Shown in pieces: positions 3,277 to 25,820 of a DNA stretch of 64,000 bases. Below the pieces are notes generated by a model, which saw only the letters and a list, made by a program, of their open reading frames with translations, did no database searches and was not told the DNA's origin. Source of the DNA: a phage; sequence record PX068454.1, one strand, 5' to 3'. The stretch's first letter is position 1; the number at the start of each line of letters is the position of its first letter. A program made the position numbers and the translations under genes.

Positions 3277-3561
3277 TTAACGGTTTACGTAAGTTTTCCC
3301 GTTTACGGTGATTGGCAGATCTTCCAGGTCTGGATCTTCCTTAAGGTCGCGAGCAAGCTCACCGCACCGGATACCCTCGAATCCGTAGTACTCTGTCGTG
3401 CCGTCCTTAAAAGTTTTAGCGGCAAGGCATAAGCGATAAGTGACCCCGATTCGATTGACGGCATGAATATCCGTTAGATTAACCTCTTTTGCCAGCTCTT
3501 TAGCCATTACAGGCGCATTAAGTCCAACAACCAGGGCAACCACTGCGATCATCTTTTTCAT
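3277..3561 (-). CDS. secreted protein with N-terminal signal peptide (94 aa)
   Basis: N-terminus MKKMIAVVALVVGLNAPVMA looks like a Sec signal peptide. Confidence 0.55.
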   Translation of the reverse strand: MKKMIAVVALVVGLNAPVMAKELAKEVNLTDIHAVNRIGVTYRLCLAAKTFKDGTTEYYGFEGIRCGELARDLKEDPDLEDLPITVNGKTYVNR

Positions 3562-3652
3562 TGTGTCTATCCTCTTTCTGCTACGTTTAAGGCGGCGGTA
3601 ACCGCCTGTTTATGCTTTATTGGTTAATTTTCAGGTATCTCTATAAATTAAA

Positions 3653-3868
3653 CTATGCTGTACGCTCAACTATAACAACGGTTTGAGGGATCTCACCTTC
3701 CACCACTATCAAGGCTTTTTTCTGCGTGATGGATATCTTTACCCGTTGCAGCGTGGCGGTGAAGTCTTTCATTTCGTCACGTGGTGTTTTAGTGCAATAC
3801 CAGATCTCAGGCTTGCCGATCTGCAAGTTGCGTAAAAATTCTGTTTTGCCTGTTTTGTTAGTGATCAT
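3653..3868 (-). CDS. hypothetical protein (71 aa)
   Basis: ORF track. Confidence 0.5.
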   Translation of the reverse strand: MITNKTGKTEFLRNLQIGKPEIWYCTKTPRDEMKDFTATLQRVKISITQKKALIVVEGEIPQTVVIVERTA

Positions 3869-3877
3869 TTGCCAACC

Positions 3878-3982
3878 TCACCCGATACCGTTGGAAGATA
3901 AGATCACATTAGCCATGGTTGCAATCAGGCCAATACCCAGGGCAATAACCAGGATCACCGCATCAATTAATTTCTGTTTCAT
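3878..3982 (-). CDS. small membrane peptide (34 aa, not in ORF track)
   Basis: RBS GAGGAA then ATG; translation MKQKLIDAVILVIALGIGLIATMANVILSSNGIG. Confidence 0.3.
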   Translation of the reverse strand: MKQKLIDAVILVIALGIGLIATMANVILSSNGIG

Positions 3983-4072
3983 TTTGTTTTCCTCTTCTTG
4001 TTCCAGGTGGCGGACCATTCCACCGCCTTATGTATTATGCTTTGTAAGATGGTTGTTTGTTTTCAAACTATT

Positions 4073-4252
4073 TTAACGATAATCATCGTACGCTTTATTA
4101 ACCTGGCGAATATAACATTCAAAAGCCAGATCAATAGATTTATATTCACGGATATACTCACCATAGGAAACCACATACATTTCTATAGCTTCCTCATATG
4201 CGAGGAGAATAGAATCCAAGCCTACGATCTCAGTCTTTGCAATAATAGCCAT
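4073..4252 (-). CDS. hypothetical protein (59 aa, not in ORF track)
   Basis: Manual translation MAIIAKTEIVGLDSILLAYEEAIEMYVVSYGEYIREYKSIDLAFECYIRQVNKAYDDYR fills an operon gap. Confidence 0.4.
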   Translation of the reverse strand: MAIIAKTEIVGLDSILLAYEEAIEMYVVSYGEYIREYKSIDLAFECYIRQVNKAYDDYR

Positions 4253-6978: not shown

Positions 6979-7359
6979 TTAAAAATTATCGCCGTAAATC
7001 TTTCCGCTTTCTGCCCACACCGCCACGCGGGGCATGTTATCCCATACGTCTTGTTTTAGATTTAACGCGTGCAATTCTTCTGTGGTGCTCATACCAGGCA
7101 CGGGCTGATTGTATACTGCAAAACGACCACCTGCATAATCATAAGCTAAAGTCAAATCGCACTGAATCATTTTCTTGATCATGGCGTTAAGCATAGCGTT
7201 AGCCGCGTACTGGTCACGTTTTAAAGGCAACTCTTTGATTAGTTTGCGATAGTTTTCGATATGGTCGCACACTGTTTCACGTGGAAGATCTTTCATATCT
7301 TCACGGAATGTAACCAGGTTAAACATAACGGTGTCAATAGCTTTAGTAGTGTTTTTCAT
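6979..7359 (-). CDS. hypothetical protein (126 aa)
   Basis: ORF track; promoter and hairpin upstream. Confidence 0.55.
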   Translation of the reverse strand: MKNTTKAIDTVMFNLVTFREDMKDLPRETVCDHIENYRKLIKELPLKRDQYAANAMLNAMIKKMIQCDLTLAYDYAGGRFAVYNQPVPGMSTTEELHALNLKQDVWDNMPRVAVWAESGKIYGDNF

Positions 7360-7414
7360 GATGTTTTCCTCTTTGTTTTGTGTGGGGGCAAGTCATCTCG
7401 CCCCCTTAAGTTTT

Positions 7415-7442
7415 AATATAGCAGGTTTTTAGATTATTGCAA
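7415..7442 (-). promoter_or_regulatory. sigma70-type promoter TTGCAA-16-TATATT
   Basis: Followed by 5' UTR hairpin GGGGGC-N-GCCCCC at 7384-7405. Confidence 0.5.
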
Positions 7443-14596: not shown

Positions 14597-15055
14597 TCAA
14601 CACTTTTTGTACTCTACTACAACCACATCAATATCTGTGGTTGCAAGATTAATTACATCTTCTACATGTTCCCACTTTAGACCGCCAATACCGCATCCGA
14701 TTTTAGGAATGTAGAACGGCAATGACACACCTTTGAATACCTCGTTGACTCGCTCAAAACCTTTCATGATTGAGAAGTATTCAGCATTGGGCCCTGGGTA
14801 GAACTGGGTATACAGGTTGATTCCATATACGACCCTGTTCTTGGCAAAATGCTCCCAACAAGAAAACATACCCAGCTTGTCTAGATTCCCATAAGCAGTC
14901 TCTTTGTCGGCTGCCAGTGCTTGAGGGAACTCACGGGCAATATCTTTCGCTATGCCTGCACCCATTGTGTGAAAGCAGTTACAACCGTGGATCAGGTGAC
15001 CAGCACCGCTCTTAAAAAGGGAGATTAAATCTCCCGCTACAGTATCAATAATCAC
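14597..15055 (-). CDS. macro-domain protein (ADP-ribose binding or hydrolysing fold)
   Basis: Motifs HGCNCFHTMGAGIA and IGCGIGG resemble macro-domain Gly-rich loops; 152 aa. Confidence 0.65.
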   Translation of the reverse strand: MIIDTVAGDLISLFKSGAGHLIHGCNCFHTMGAGIAKDIAREFPQALAADKETAYGNLDKLGMFSCWEHFAKNRVVYGINLYTQFYPGPNAEYFSIMKGFERVNEVFKGVSLPFYIPKIGCGIGGLKWEHVEDVINLATTDIDVVVVEYKKC

Positions 15056-20299: not shown

Positions 20300-20670
20300 T
20301 GATCGGTCTCCTTCTTGTTAAGTCTGAATACTGCAATAATAGCATTTCCAAGGTGCAGTGTCAAATCATTTCCAAGATACCACAGCATCCCACGGTCATC
20401 TTTAATGAAAGGGTAACAATCTGGTGCCTTCCAGACATTGTACACTTTGCCAACCTGAAAGAAATCAGGCCCTGTTGGGATTTTAGTGCCTGGCCACACT
20501 TGAGATACCTGAACACACTCCACCTGCATAATAACAGGGATAGTCATAGATGTAAATGTTTTTGTTGGTTCTACTACCATAAAAGTTTCCTCTTTGCTCA
20601 ACAACACTTCCATGTGTTGATAGTTTACATTAGTGACAATCACCCCAATTACGACCACACAAGTATTCAC
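20296..20670 (-). CDS. hypothetical protein (124 aa)
   Basis: ORF track. Confidence 0.5.
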   Translation of the reverse strand: MNTCVVVIGVIVTNVNYQHMEVLLSKEETFMVVEPTKTFTSMTIPVIMQVECVQVSQVWPGTKIPTGPDFFQVGKVYNVWKAPDCYPFIKDDRGMLWYLGNDLTLHLGNAIIAVFRLNKKETDQ

Positions 20671-20983
20671 CTGTGATCTGGAACGGGACTCCCATCATTT
20701 TAGAAGCTTGCCAGAAGCAATGTACCACCATTTCACCCACAGGGCTCCAGATAAGTTCAAGCTTTCCGTCATCGTTCAGGATAGGATCGTACACCGTGTT
20801 TCCGTCTCTGTCAACCACTTCGTTTCCGTTCTCATCTTTGCGTGCCTTTTTGTACTTATGACCGTCGAACACATGAAGTTTGGCCTCCTGTTCTGCCTTA
20901 AATGCTTCCAGTTCTTCAATTGTGTCGAAGGTGTACACAGTCTTATACTTCGGTGTGTCAGGCACTTGAAGTTGGTACTCATC
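20630..20983 (-). CDS. DNA polymerase (family A), exon 2: motif C to C-terminus
   Basis: Frame opens as DEYQLQV and ends GRNWGDCH, like the Pol I/T7 C-terminus; no ATG, ORF track used TTG. Confidence 0.8.
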   Translation of the reverse strand, partial: DEYQLQVPDTPKYKTVYTFDTIEELEAFKAEQEAKLHVFDGHKYKKARKDENGNEVVDRDGNTVYDPILNDDGKLELIWSPVGEMVVHCFWQASKMMGVPFQITGEYLCGRNWGDCH

Positions 20984-21259
20984 CAATAGTTCAGGTAGGT
21001 CGTTAAGCTACCCCGCACCATTACGTGCATAGCCATACGTTTTCACGTAGGATCGGACCATCTCATATTCCTATGATAAGCAACCACAGGAATCCTCCCA
21101 TTTCGACCGCACTTGCTGGTCTACTTCCTTTCGGAATGGCCTCTGAGCGTTCGCTCTTTTGAGCGCTTCGTTGCGGATTACCTTGCCATAAGGTTTAGGC
21201 TTCCCGCAGTTAAAGAGGTTATTCGACATAGATTACTCTATGAAGCCACAATGTTATTT
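20984..21259 (-). ncRNA. candidate group I self-splicing intron (ORF-less, 276 nt)
   Basis: Joins ..IIYYH to DEYQLQV restoring HDE; 5' exon ends in U and intron ends in G; IGS GUGG pairs with exon CCAU; P/Q/R/S-like elements ACUGCGGGAAGCC, AAUCCGCAAC, CUCAGAGGCCAUUCC, GAGAUGGUCCGAUCC. Confidence 0.7.
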
Positions 21260-23683
21260 ATGGTAATAAATAATACGACGAACACCTTCATCGTACCACC
21301 CACGCTTCACCATCTGGTGGTGCATGAGTATCCCAACTAAGTCACACAGCGATGCACCACCATTCTGTTGGTATGCATTAAGTAAAGAGTGTTTAGATCG
21401 GGTCCAGATAGCATGACCATCAAAAGAGTAGATAAACTTCTTACCCGTTGCTTCCCAGAATTTCTCCAGATCCTCTTTACGCCCTTTAAGACCAGGGTTG
21501 GCATCCCAAAGCGCATCGATTACCCTTTGCCCCAACTCTGGGGAGATATCCAGCATATCTGCAACTTTATCTTTTTGTGCCCCATACATAACCCCATACG
21601 TGATAGGTTTACCGTCGTTACGAGACACCTCTCTACCTGCCACTTTTGTATATGCCTCAGCATTGTTTTGGTGTGCGTCCCCGTTACTTACAACATCGTA
21701 ATACAGGCCGTTGTCGAACTCAAAGGCACCCCAAGCCCCGATAAGCTGCTCTAAGTTGGACCCGTCAATACCGATCTCAAAGTATCCTGGAGGAACACCC
21801 CACAGACTACGCATCTCTTTACCCATAACCACTTTAGGAGATGGTTTAGGCATGTTTGCACAAATACTGTGTTTCTGTCGGGAAGTGTTTGTTAATCCAG
21901 AACTTTTAGCAGGAAGCTTATGGTCAATCTTCAAACGTGGGTGATTAAGAAGACCAGTATCAACCTTATCCTCCTTGATTGGATCAAGGACCGATCTGCG
22001 GTTTCGCAATGATAACCACAAGACGATATCTTTAGCCATCTCTCCGTTCAATTTTTCAAGATTCGGACATAGGTGTCCAAACGTATCTTTCAGTTGCGGA
22101 GAAGTAATAAGTGCCCTGGCTTTTCTACGTATTTTCCCGAATACTTCCTTTTTAATCCTTTCGGAGTTAGGAAAGCTTCGGAACTTGTGCACGGTTGTCT
22201 GGAACTTAGCATCAGTTTTGTTCCAGAAGTTGATAATCAGGTCACAATACTCTGACTCTAAAAGCTCGTCCATATATGCATATACTCGTGCATCAACATC
22301 TGCATCAGGTAGAGCTTTCTTCTTGCTGTCTTTAGTTACATCCTTAGTTCTCCACATTGTCGGAAGCCAACCAGCACTGATCAGGTATCGCTTAATGTCG
22401 TCCTGATTGCTGATTTTCATAAGTATCTTGCAGTCCGGCATTCGCTTCTGCTGTAGATCACTTATTGCCTGATCCATTAGCTCTTTAGGTAAAGGTTGTG
22501 GTGTTGAGGTGCCCTTAATATAGCCTCTCAAGAAATCAGCCATCTTATCGGGGTCTTTGCAGCCCATCTCTTCACACCATTTTATCCCCATCTTACTGAC
22601 ATCTCCTGTGGAGGTAAATGCTCGCTTAGGCGGGGCTTTGAACTCTAAAGCGCTCATATCTACAGGATAGCCAAGCTTATCTTTTAACCATTTCCAGCCA
22701 TTATTGGAAATTGTCCCATCTTGGTTGAACGGCTTTTCAGGGAATTTAGGCCGCTGAGATATTGATAACTCTTTTAAAGGAAGTTGAGGTTCAACACGAT
22801 CAGCGATCTCTTTCATCCACGCATCACAGCGGTCACGTAAAGCAATAGCCCCGTCTATGTCGAAATACACACCCTGACGGGCCTGCAGCTCCATCAGGAA
22901 GTGCTGCAGCATGCCTCGGCGTAATGCGTTCTTCCAGGTGATCTTCTTGAACCCTTTCGGCTTCTCTTTGGCAGGATCGTACATAAAGTTCTGCATGTCA
23001 GACTTGCCGTAGAATACACCTTTTGATTCCGCTACCAGTTCTTTCCAGAGCAGCTCCTGGATGATAACGTCCTCAAATACACGATCCACATACTTCCACA
23101 ACGGAAGATCGCGCCAGTCATCAATTTGAACTTTCTGGTTACCAAGAGCATAGCCCCATGCCATAAGGCCGTGAGGACCAACAGGCTGCATTTTCTTAGT
23201 GACCGGGTTGAATACAGAGTCCGGACAACCTTTTGGTAAAGGGCGATCAGGCCACAAGATTCGACTCATCGCCAACGTATCAAACAGGTTAACCTGGTGG
23301 TCGTTGATAGTCCCCATGCATTTAGGATCACGGAACATGTCAAAATGAATACCGGATAATCTTTCCATCAGCATAAAGTCATAACTGTAGCAGTTATGGC
23401 AGTTCAAAGCTGTTGGTGACCAGTCGGAATTGCCTGTAAGCCAACCTTCCAACTCCGAAAAATCTGCTATGCGAACTTCAAAATCTTTATAAAGAGTTTT
23501 CTTTGCCAGAATGAAGTTCTTAGCCTTTTCTATATCCTCCTCGGAGTAGTGTGTGCGGTCATTTAGAGGAAGGAACAGCATAAAACGGTTCTTATTCAGC
23601 TCTTTAAACAGACCGCAGTGATAATAAAGATCTGGGTCTTCCAGTAAACCGGATGACTCAAAATCGAACGACCACATGCTCAT
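21260..23683 (-). CDS. DNA polymerase (family A, with 3'-5' exonuclease domain), exon 1
   Basis: Exo motifs FDFESSG and CYSYD; motif A GIDGSNLEQL; motif B KPITYGVMYGAQ; stops one codon after YYH. Confidence 0.85.
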
Positions 23684-23741
23684 ATACAGTTCTCCTTAAA
23701 GGGGAGGTGGTTGTACTACCCCTCCCACTCTTTGTTAAACA

Positions 23742-25820
23742 TTAAAAAGGTGTTTCATCATCCTCAAAACCAGGAACATGGTCAGAGGACGGATCATCGT
23801 ACTGGAGGTCTTCCTGCGTGTCAACAGGCTTAACAGTAGGAGTTACAACCTTATCAGCCACAACCTTGCCCATAGGTGTTTCTACAACTGCATGCTCCTG
23901 ATCCTCAAACATAGCCTGAGGTCTCCAAACAACCTCCCCACCTTCTCCATCTGTAAACATTTGCATTTCTTTGTCCCAGTACCAATTACTGGCATCATGG
24001 AACTTACCTGTATGTGGGTCCATAACCAAAGTGTCTGCAATACCCAATGTTTTTGCTGGACGGTTTTTAAGACCTACTAAACGGACACGCCCACGAGAAC
24101 GATCCACCATTTCTTCGGCCTCGACACCTATGACTACCCAACTCAACTGTTCAAGCCCAGCCGATCCTCGCAAATTCTCTTTTCGCACAGGATACCAGAA
24201 AGGTAATGGGTTACCATCCTTGTCCTTAGGAGGCACAATCTCTGTACGTTTGAGGTGAGCGATCACCAAGATAAACACGTTAAACTGCTTACAAAACGCA
24301 GCCAGCTGAGTCATAGCCATGTCCAGTTCTTTTCGCTCATCTTTAACATTAAGCCCTGAAATTACCATAGACAGGTGATCCAGCACAATATAGCGACAAT
24401 GGTACAGGCAGACCATTTGCTTAAGCTTGGTAATCAACTCGTCCACTGGAATAGACCCGAAATGTTTGAACACTTTGATTTTTCCAGCTTTTGCCCATGA
24501 TTGGTGAATCTCTGCATGTTCTTGATCAGTTAAAAACTGGCTAGGATCTTCAACAAACTCTTTAACATCAAACCCTAACTGGTTTGCATACAAGGAGTTA
24601 ATTGCTTCCTCTGGGTCCTCCTCAAGATGAATCATGCATAGACGATCATCCTCTTCGTAGTCATCGGCCTTTGGACATGTCGGGTCCATTAGGTATCTTG
24701 CAATACAGTGTTCCAGTTTTTTGGCTACAGTTGTTTTACCACCTCCTGATGGACCTGTAAGCATTACGAGTGTCCCTTTGTGCAAGCCTTTTAGCATTTT
24801 TTGCAGTTTTGGAAACTCTGCGCTGATATCTACCCCGTTGGAAGTCTTTTTCCGCAAAGATTCGATAGAGAAGTCTTCTAAATCCGACACAGCATCAGGC
24901 ACATACTTAACAGGATGCCGGAACATGTTTACAATATCTTCCAGCTTTTTAGCCTTCAGCATGTCACGGATATCTTTTACACCATCAGGGTCGTTTACCT
25001 CGCCAGGATATTCCACGTGGTAAACGTTGTCAGCCATCAAAAATGCTGCAATATTATGTGTGGCTTCAACACCTTTGATAACGTGTTTTTGCTTCTCTAC
25101 CTCGTTAGCCGCATCGTTGTCCATTGCAAGGACCACTGTTCCGTAGCTACGGATAAATTTCTCATTGTTTGCAAAAGTATCTACTGCGTTTGCACATCCA
25201 CAGTTAATTCCGACAAAAGGCAGGCAGGGTTTTCCTGCCAAATCACCCCCGTTGATAACTGCATCGATCCCGTCCTGGACCTCTTTAGCCCACTGTTTCA
25301 CCTTTGCCGGGGCTTTAGCGTTGGTGAGAATCCCTTTTACTTGTATTTGATATGCAGCCTGCCATGCTGCAATAACATCACCTTCTCCCTCACAAACATT
25401 AATCTGCTTACGGTTGTTGGAAGATGCACACAGCTTTTGACCAAACATCTGGGAGTTAGCCTTTACTATGCCAACAACTGAGAAATGGCCCCTTTGCTCT
25501 TTAGGAATCGTCCAGTCACGCTTTTTGAAACCTGACAGATTTCCGTAGCGGTCGTAATATGGGAAATATGTTGCAGTAACTGTCACACCGTCTTCTTGAG
25601 ACAATGCTGATCGCACACCAAAATATTGTGCAGCCATCAGACCGATATTTTGTTGTGGAACAGGGACAATTTTAGTATTTTCTAAAACAGTCTCTACAGT
25701 TTCAACCTCTTTTTCATCACGATAGTCTCGTTTCACACTTCCCCCACTTTTATACTTAGTTGCTTTCGGGTTTGGCTCACCGAAACGGTTGTATGCAGAT
25801 GCCATAAATTTACTTCCCAT
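23742..25820 (-). CDS. primase-helicase (T7 gp4-like)
   Basis: TOPRIM-like LAMDNDAANE; Walker A GPSGGGKTT; 692 aa. Confidence 0.8.
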   Translation of the reverse strand: MGSKFMASAYNRFGEPNPKATKYKSGGSVKRDYRDEKEVETVETVLENTKIVPVPQQNIGLMAAQYFGVRSALSQEDGVTVTATYFPYYDRYGNLSGFKKRDWTIPKEQRGHFSVVGIVKANSQMFGQKLCASSNNRKQINVCEGEGDVIAAWQAAYQIQVKGILTNAKAPAKVKQWAKEVQDGIDAVINGGDLAGKPCLPFVGINCGCANAVDTFANNEKFIRSYGTVVLAMDNDAANEVEKQKHVIKGVEATHNIAAFLMADNVYHVEYPGEVNDPDGVKDIRDMLKAKKLEDIVNMFRHPVKYVPDAVSDLEDFSIESLRKKTSNGVDISAEFPKLQKMLKGLHKGTLVMLTGPSGGGKTTVAKKLEHCIARYLMDPTCPKADDYEEDDRLCMIHLEEDPEEAINSLYANQLGFDVKEFVEDPSQFLTDQEHAEIHQSWAKAGKIKVFKHFGSIPVDELITKLKQMVCLYHCRYIVLDHLSMVISGLNVKDERKELDMAMTQLAAFCKQFNVFILVIAHLKRTEIVPPKDKDGNPLPFWYPVRKENLRGSAGLEQLSWVVIGVEAEEMVDRSRGRVRLVGLKNRPAKTLGIADTLVMDPHTGKFHDASNWYWDKEMQMFTDGEGGEVVWRPQAMFEDQEHAVVETPMGKVVADKVVTPTVKPVDTQEDLQYDDPSSDHVPGFEDDETPF

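Follow-up and report, generated by a model that had tools for sequence, protein, structure and literature searches.

A 276-nt ORF-less insert predicted to be a spliced IA2 group I intron in motif C of a Vequintavirus DNA polymerase gene

In an rV5-like coliphage of the genus Vequintavirus, the gene for the family A (T7-like) DNA polymerase is interrupted by 276 nt that very probably constitute a group I intron of subgroup IA2, spliced out at CAU|GAU. The stretch of DNA analysed, referred to here as the window, comprises 64,000 nt of sequence record PX068454.1 and exhibits 97-98% identity to the phages MaxTheCat (98.4%), RudolfGeigy, and rV5. The sequence of the insert, its covarying fold, its exact junction, and the polymorphism of the site in the phage population were all observed directly. 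As an ORF-less IA2 intron, the element is of an ordinary kind; its site is a known hotspot, sister genomes already have it annotated, and knowledge of group I introns is left unchanged by it. It adds to the group I introns that directly adjoin a catalytic codon in an essential gene of replication, and the occurrence of intron-less, ORF-less, and HNH-containing alleles in near-identical coliphages offers a convenient natural system for research on intron gain, loss, and trans-mobilisation.

The divided gene and its uninterrupted counterparts

On the minus strand, an 809-aa ORF (23683..21254) terminates as ..RRIIYYH-K-stop, the CAU codon of its last His having its final base at 21260. The portion ending with this codon, designated exon 1 (Table 1), includes the exonuclease region together with motifs A and B of Pol A, gives a partial match to DNA_pol_A in Pfam, and can be aligned with T7 DNA polymerase across motif A (GIDGSNLE) and motif B. 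Exon 2 opens with GAU GAG UAC.. at 20983 and closes with the stop codon at 20632-20630, and the insert between CAU and GAU measures exactly 276 nt (21259..20984). When the two exons are joined, a 925-aa polymerase is obtained with the conserved reading frame intact, and its alignment with T7 DNA polymerase runs through motifs A and B and over the junction, where YYHDEYQL lies opposite T7 WVHDEIQV, as far as T7 residue 658. By this alignment, the insertion point is located between the equivalents of T7 His653 and the catalytic Asp654 of the HDE triplet (residues 653-655). Upstream on the same strand lies a primase/helicase gene resembling T7 gp4 (25820..23745; Pfam DnaB_C, AAA_25). An intein reading was rejected, the insert having an in-frame stop one codon from its start (AAA UAA).

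Uninterrupted versions of the gene are found in close relatives. In YN3, the polymerase CDS is an unbroken 2778 nt in which exons 1 and 2 are contiguous; its protein reads ..RRIIYYHDEYQLQV.. at the site, with 100% identity across the 208 aa tested, and its CDS differs from the joined exons of the window at 60 positions and reads ..RRIIYYHDEYQLQVPDTPK.. over the site. The polymerase genes of Murica, EduardKellenberger, ECP32, and EI-SP-GF are likewise uninterrupted, and the architecture of the 925-aa joined product is identical to that encoded by the intact genes of YN3, Murica, EduardKellenberger, and ECP32. Intron-less relatives thus encode ..YYHDEYQLQV.., which is exactly the predicted splice product. 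The intron boundaries are fixed by these intron-less alleles, and the contiguous guide CAUUGUGG also agrees with the junction CAU|GAU, which after splicing is predicted to read ..UAUUACCAU|GAUGAGUAC...

An earlier sequence-only reading of this DNA had placed the exon ends at the same positions, with exon 2 running from DEYQLQV.. to GRNWGDCH after a 276-nt gap, and had noted a U at the end of the 5′ exon and a G at the end of the element; the minus-strand sequence bears out all of these, with the U at 21260 and the G at 20984. Its further claim that joining at cat|gat restores motif C agrees with the T7 alignment of HDE 653-655 across the junction and with the intron-less comparison that it had itself proposed, which returns a 925-aa CDS.

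Synonymous differences from the intron-less YN3 cluster around the site, at -10, +2, +5, +8, +11, and +20 (flanks 21270-21260 and 20983-20964), and the flank haplotype of the window also occurs in the intron-less Murica and EduardKellenberger; the pattern is compatible with co-conversion or precise intron loss. The exon-2 GAU needed for P10 was considered as a marker of intron-bearing alleles and rejected, since Murica and EduardKellenberger, which lack the intron, also have GAT, and SPA01, which carries it, has GAC.

Fold, class, and covariation of the insert

A full-length match to the Rfam group I model RF00028 (model positions 1-253 of 253) was obtained at 21269..21034 on the minus strand, with 64.7 bits against a gathering threshold of 50 and an E value of 4e-14; the model stops at P9. 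The whole core from P3 to P9 is present, with its P3/P7 pseudoknot, and the conserved junction sequences match in the Rfam alignment. By its sequence and predicted fold, the insert belongs to the group I introns, as the earlier reading had it; the covariance-model search which that reading had suggested and covariation in 11 homologues both agree with this identity. The strings previously described as P-, Q-, R-, and S-like correspond, in the order claimed, to the 5′ and 3′ strands of P4 and the 5′ and 3′ strands of P7. The guide GUGG, which that reading had located from insert nt 11, does pair with exon CCAU with a U·G at the splice site, and the hairpins with GAAA and AAAA loops that it listed are present as AAAA (P6), GAAA (P7.1), and GAAA (P9), alongside a GUAA tetraloop (P2). 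With the ligated exons CCAU|GAUG, the guide CAUUGUGG forms one contiguous pairing, made up of P1 and a 4-bp P10. In the MFE fold of the insert, which has z = -2.8 relative to shuffles, the local hairpins are recovered.

Subgroup IA2 is defined by the extra helices P7.1 and P7.2, located between P7 and P3′ and joined by G-U-A (PMC3428280). In the window intron, an invariant GUA links P7.1 to P7.2, and on these predicted helices it is assigned to subgroup IA2.

Table 1. Positions of the exons, the predicted intron, and its helices in the window
Feature	Position	Strand	Sequence or content	Remark
DNA polymerase exon 1	23683..21260	minus	808 codons, Met..His; ends ..RRIIYYH, last codon CAU	ORF list and sequence
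DNA polymerase exon 2	20983..20630	minus	117 codons and stop; DEYQLQV...GRNWGDCH*	Sequence
Predicted ORF-less group I intron, IA2 type	21259..20984	minus	276 nt; starts AAAUAA, ends ..CUAUUG	Terminal G at 20984
P1	21263..21246	minus	Exon CCAU and intron AA with UUGUGG	U·G wobble at splice site, 21260/21249
Internal guide	21253..21246	minus	CAUUGUGG	Also pairs with first exon-2 bases GAUG (P10)
P2 hairpin	21242..21227	minus	CAUAGA-GUAA-UCUAUG	
P3 5′ strand	21218..21213	minus	CCUCUU	Partner 21099..21094; pseudoknot with P7
P3 3′ strand	21099..21094	minus	GGGAGG	
P4-P5 arm	21208..21172	minus	UGCGGG ... UCCGCA, short P5 between	Rfam alignment; also in MFE fold
P6 hairpin	21165..21152	minus	CGCUC-AAAA-GAGCG	Site of HNH ORF in relatives, e.g. 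FFH2
P7 5′ strand	21145..21137	minus	CAGAGGCCA	Partner UGGUCCG, 21060..21054
P7 3′ strand	21060..21054	minus	UGGUCCG	
P7.1, GUA, and P7.2	21136..21105	minus	UUCC-GAAA-GGAA / GUA 21124..21122 / GACC..GGUC	IA2 signature
P8 hairpin	21092..21068	minus		
P9 hairpin	21051..21033	minus	CC-UACGU-GAAA-ACGUA-U-GG	
P9.1 and P9.2	21028..20994	minus	GCAC-GUAAUG-GUGC; GGUAG..CUACC	Peripheral, outside Rfam model
Terminal G and P10	20984; 20983..20980	minus	G; exon-2 GAUG	GAUG pairs with CAUU of guide

Same-site introns were gathered from 11 other phages, and 10 of them were aligned with that of the window (alignment A1, n=11); FFH2 was omitted, being nearly identical to JLBYU08 outside P6, and the gene-holding P6 region was removed by hand from the four HNH-bearing sequences. 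A total of 52 pairs was scored in P1, P2, P3, outer P4, P7, P7.2, basal P8, P9, P9.1, and P9.2. The inner pairs of P4, together with P5, P6, and P7.1, were excluded from the formal count, as MAFFT misplaces a one-base bulge and the length-variable arms; in P4, where the bulge of the relatives is misaligned, the two outer pairs alone were scored. Standard pairs are formed in 99.6% of the 568 cells (52 pairs, 11 sequences), compared with 35-42% once the 3′ partners have been displaced by 1-3 columns (slid controls) and with 85.6% for shuffles, a comparison in which the sequences are related and the structure, assigned by hand and partly from the window sequence, has an advantage over the slid controls. 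Changes on both sides are observed in 26 of the 52 pairs, and the observed covariation score was reached by none of 500 shuffles.

Compensatory changes affect all six pairs of P2, three of six in P3 (100% paired), two of seven in P7 (also 100% paired), four of the five basal pairs of P8, five of seven in P9, two of four in P9.1, and three of five in P9.2. Outside the formal count, P6 of JLBYU08 (CAUCC-GAGA-GGAUG) is compensatory relative to that of the window, and P7.1 is absent from the relatives in Vibrio phages. As alignment evidence, the compensatory changes in P2, P8, and P9 are unambiguous despite the kinship of the sequences and the manner in which the structure was assigned. The elements at the splice sites are invariant in 11/11 sequences, namely all six pairs of P1 with the U·G, and the terminal G, as is the GUA linker; UG forms the 3′ end in all 12 introns compared, and P10 comprises 3-4 bp in the relatives.

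No further intron-like match was returned by Rfam in the 64-kb window, even at E<=1. Relatives carry an upstream polymerase intron and the rV5 paper mentions terminase introns; a second intron in the window was rejected on this result. A match to Clostridium-PBP RNA at 7357-7429 on the minus strand (35.7 bits against a gathering threshold of 94.4, E 0.5) is almost certainly due to chance.

Predicted splicing and the explanations weighed against it

In the proposed mechanism, the polymerase gene would be transcribed as a single pre-mRNA in which the intron would fold as a P1-P9.2 ribozyme. A free guanosine in P7 would attack the phosphate 3′ of the last U of exon 1 (U21260), which the guide UUGUGG would keep in P1 through a U·G wobble, and the freed 3′-OH of U21260 would in turn attack after the terminal G (20984), with the 4-bp P10 aligning exon 2. 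Ligation at CAU|GAU would yield the 925-aa polymerase, restoring the His-Asp-Glu of motif C equivalent to T7 H653-D654-E655. Catalysis, and hence self-splicing, by the window intron itself is predicted from its sequence. The Rfam score exceeds its threshold only moderately, and the short P5 arm could reflect a need for a protein cofactor or, in vitro, for high Mg2+.

That dependence can be carried further, to an intron which is spliced in infected cells yet is not autonomously catalytic and folds only with the help of active translation or of a protein from the phage or the host. This is regarded as unlikely, albeit worth some weight: the element is a trimmed ORF-less form with a short P5, a minimal P6 and P7.1, and peripheral arms far shorter than those of the ~329-nt variant found at the same site, its 64.7 bits fall below relatives at 72-91 bits, and about half of the tested Bastillevirinae introns were spliced in vivo only (PMC11878797). 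Against this, the P3-P9 core is intact, with every conserved junction sequence matched in the Rfam alignment. Small IA2 phage introns, such as those of T4 td and nrdB, generally self-splice. The IA2 polymerase introns of phages ΦI and W31 are reportedly called self-splicing in the very title of the 2004 paper by Bonocora and Shub (J Bacteriol 186:8153).

An arrangement without any splicing, in which two polypeptides (808 aa plus Lys, and about 118 aa initiated at UUG 20986) associate non-covalently, comparable to Aeh1 NrdA split by mobE, is very improbable. Many GenBank records do annotate two separate 'DNA polymerase' CDSs, and phages do possess non-spliced split genes (discussed in PMC7344957). 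The in-frame UUG at 20986, one codon 5′ of exon 2, would provide a start, yet it is the intron's own 3′ end, and nothing resembling a Shine-Dalgarno sequence occurs in the 25 nt 5′ of exon 2 (GCUUAACGACCUACCUGAACUAUUG). In motif C, moreover, the break comes between the His and the catalytic Asp. By its predicted fold, the insert forms a complete ribozyme with covariation, precise intron-less alleles exist in relatives, and the homologous insert of phage CB7 is spliced (PMC7344957). Also at odds with the evidence, and with next to no probability, is a decayed intron remnant or chance resemblance within a polymerase pseudogene, for which the ORF-less state of the insert is the sole point in favour. 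The Rfam E value of 4e-14 speaks against chance, and the 276-nt sequence is 100% identical in at least 10, and at least 99% identical in 23, of the records listed, including the plaque-isolated rV5 and RudolfGeigy. The gene is moreover the only family A polymerase in the scanned region, with in-frame conservation on both sides of the insert.

Alleles, relatives, and mobility of the intron

The site of the predicted IA2 intron was surveyed in its genus with a 400-nt spliced-junction probe, which matched 117 Vequintavirus records. In an evenly spaced sample of 60 of these, the gene is intron-less in 27, contains the 276-nt intron in 14, and is split by a larger insert in 16; an ORF-less form of ~328-329 nt occurs in two (JEP1 and JLBYU08), and one half-length match (H220) was left unclassified. 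The 276-nt form at >=95% identity is present in 24 records and the large form in 32; in FFH2, the latter measures 843 nt and bears an HNH ORF within the P6 loop, for which the Pfam HNH_3 match is weak, whereas that of CB7 is clear. The site is therefore polymorphic for no intron, the 276-nt ORF-less form, the ~329-nt ORF-less form, and the HNH-in-P6 form. Between the 276-nt and ~329-nt forms, P1-P3 and the region from P9.1 to the 3′ end are nearly identical, while the cores have diverged with compensation, and JEP1 combines parts of both; these shared ends, diverged cores, and the JEP1 mixture imply that the variants are mosaics. Sixteen unannotated records labelled 'Campylobacter phage' (MG065635-MG065690; A141, D1, C2, and others), with Campylobacter jejuni as the stated host, are 95-98% identical to rV5-like coliphages at the locus, and each of the three intron states is found among them; mislabelling or contamination is the probable origin of these genomes.

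Introns with the same P1 occupy this identical site (..Y-H|D-E..) in the Seunavirus phages SSE121 and GEC_vB_MG, Certrevirus CB7, Avunavirus 18-1-2, phage A5-4, the Vibrio phages K412, 10AMN, and qdvp001 (..SYH|DEFTVE..), and the Pseudomonas phage SPA01 of Pakpunavirus (..AYH|DEAQLEV.., with HNH in P6). Five ORF-less introns of this site score 63-91 bits with RF00028. A second, upstream, HNH-containing group I intron interrupts the polymerase gene in Seunavirus, Certrevirus, and Avunavirus (L007 1749-2390; L012 858-1499; L008 ~1458-2170; L010 ~937-1655), with 63.8 Rfam bits in L007 and L012; it is absent from the window and from other Vequintaviruses. In Avunavirus Av-05 (L016 ~1545-1699), a related group I intron splits the gene for the large terminase subunit; it is 73% identical to nt 8-148 of the window intron with the same P2, P4, and P7 motifs, indicating that the family also occupies another essential gene.

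The novelty implied by the sequence-only reading is not supported, as a CDS join is already present in near-identical GenBank genomes and the CB7 homologue has been shown to splice (PMC7344957). In MaxTheCat (MZ501094) and RudolfGeigy (MZ501102) of the BASEL collection, the 276 nt are 100% identical and represent the same element; the MaxTheCat polymerase CDS is a two-piece join spanning 3054 nt (2778 + 276), and intron boundaries in that work were set through comparative genomics (Maffei et al. 2021, PMC8594841). The BASEL records give the join alone, without a published ribozyme class, structure, or splicing data. The rV5 genome paper lists a polymerase of 775 aa, which corresponds to exon 1 alone, and mentions introns for the terminase gene only (PMC3606486), so that the polymerase intron is unreported in print for the type phage; a literature search on Vequintavirus splicing or RNA-seq found nothing relevant.

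A close system with splicing data is the second polymerase intron of the Pectobacterium phage CB7 (Certrevirus, Vequintavirinae), which shares the site (..RRIIYYH|DEYQLEV..), P1, and guide, and whose homologous core aligns in A1 with compensatory changes. It is 687 nt long and carries both the HNH_3 gene CB7_50 (Pfam E 3.8e-8) and a long P5 extension, neither of which is found in the window intron, and CB7 has the additional upstream polymerase intron that the window lacks. Both HNH-containing polymerase introns of CB7 were found by RT-PCR and sequencing to be removed from the mRNA, and one HNH-associated insert in another CB7 gene did not splice (PMC7344957). Homology of context is thus no guarantee of splicing.

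Several other phage introns resemble that of the window in part. The lysin intron of S. thermophilus phages, for which Foley et al. in 2000 reportedly described ORF-deletion derivatives, has the population pattern seen here, with a single site being either empty or occupied by an intron with or without an ORF, in another gene and host. Unlike those derivatives, the ORF-less form of the window is no simple deletion of the HNH form, since its P4-P9 core has also diverged. Position 881 of Pol I is taken here to be the H of the motif C HDE, and AY769989 and AY769990 are the accessions of ΦI and W31. In a secondary account, these two T7-like phages are described as having IA2 polymerase introns at Pol I position 881 with an HNH ORF in P6a, as in the FFH2-type variant, and as encoding an endonuclease (I-TslI in W31), of which the window intron has none (PMC3428280). 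Set beside ΦI and W31 by this description, the H|D site of the window would be the same as, or adjacent to, theirs. The introns of SPO1, SP82, Bastille, and Pf-WMP3 (I-HmuI, I-HmuII, I-BasI, I-PfoP3I) are also of subgroup IA2 and occupy conserved catalytic regions of phage family A polymerases, but at another site (Pol I 674, in the fingers subdomain), and each of them carries the gene for an HNH nicking endonuclease (PMC3428280).

The absence of a homing endonuclease, as originally supposed, holds for the insert, whose sole ORF encodes 52 aa (21229..21071, overlapping P2-P8) and has no Pfam match. A hidden endonuclease in this or nearby ORFs was rejected, Pfam being blank: no recognisable endonuclease was found in the ten ORFs at 14.6-20.7 kb and 25.8-27.1 kb, which flank the polymerase and primase/helicase genes. 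Homing depends on an intron-encoded endonuclease, and without such a gene the window intron cannot promote its own homing; the ORF-less form would probably spread by recombination in mixed infections. No difference from the introns of rV5 and MaxTheCat exists over 276 nt, against exon divergences of 3.9% and 8.1%, respectively; at the exon rate, zero differences would have P~2e-5 (rV5) and ~2e-10 (MaxTheCat), which points to lateral spread in the recent past, to strong constraint, or to a combination of the two. A bolder reading, tentative and on balance doubtful, is that the 276-nt form is now spreading horizontally among Vequintaviruses by means of endonucleases acting in trans, or constitutes a 'shield' allele, within a three-way polymorphism maintained by conflict. 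The enzyme may be supplied by the HNH gene of the same-site sister intron or by free-standing HNH genes adjoining the polymerase (FFH2, phita32); as a shield, the ORF-less intron may be selected for destroying the endonuclease target.

The free-standing genes differ in position. In phita32 (L004 ~3547-4236; window ~20655-20630), a 678-nt insertion at the extreme 3′ end of exon 2 represents a 215-aa NUMOD4 + HNH_3 + HTH endonuclease gene; through recoding of its final eight codons, the polymerase there ends in ..CGANWGSCH*, and the old gene end (GATTGTCACTAA) persists downstream as a remnant. In FFH2 (L002 287-1021), a 244-aa HNH_3 + AP2 endonuclease gene lies between the primase/helicase and polymerase genes, where the window has merely a gap of ~60 nt (23684-23741). 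Elsewhere in the window, a 152-aa ORF (14600-15055, minus strand) has a partial, N-terminal Macro-domain match (Pfam E 1e-5).

The predicted splicing bears on annotation. Many rV5-like genomes, including the RefSeq type, carry a truncated polymerase of 775-809 aa, a fragment of ~117 aa, and one or two spurious ORFs in the intron, and the records of rV5, FFH2, JLBYU08, and phita32 are annotated with two polymerase fragments and spurious ORFs; the suggested correction is a 925-aa enzyme, presumably translated from spliced mRNA. In RefSeq rV5, gp222 is a 52-aa 'hypothetical' ORF inside the intron (window 21229-21071, minus strand; L001 3472-3630), and gp221 is an 86-aa ORF extending out of frame over the intron 3′ end and exon 2 (window 21036-20776, minus strand; L001 3665-3925); both look spurious.
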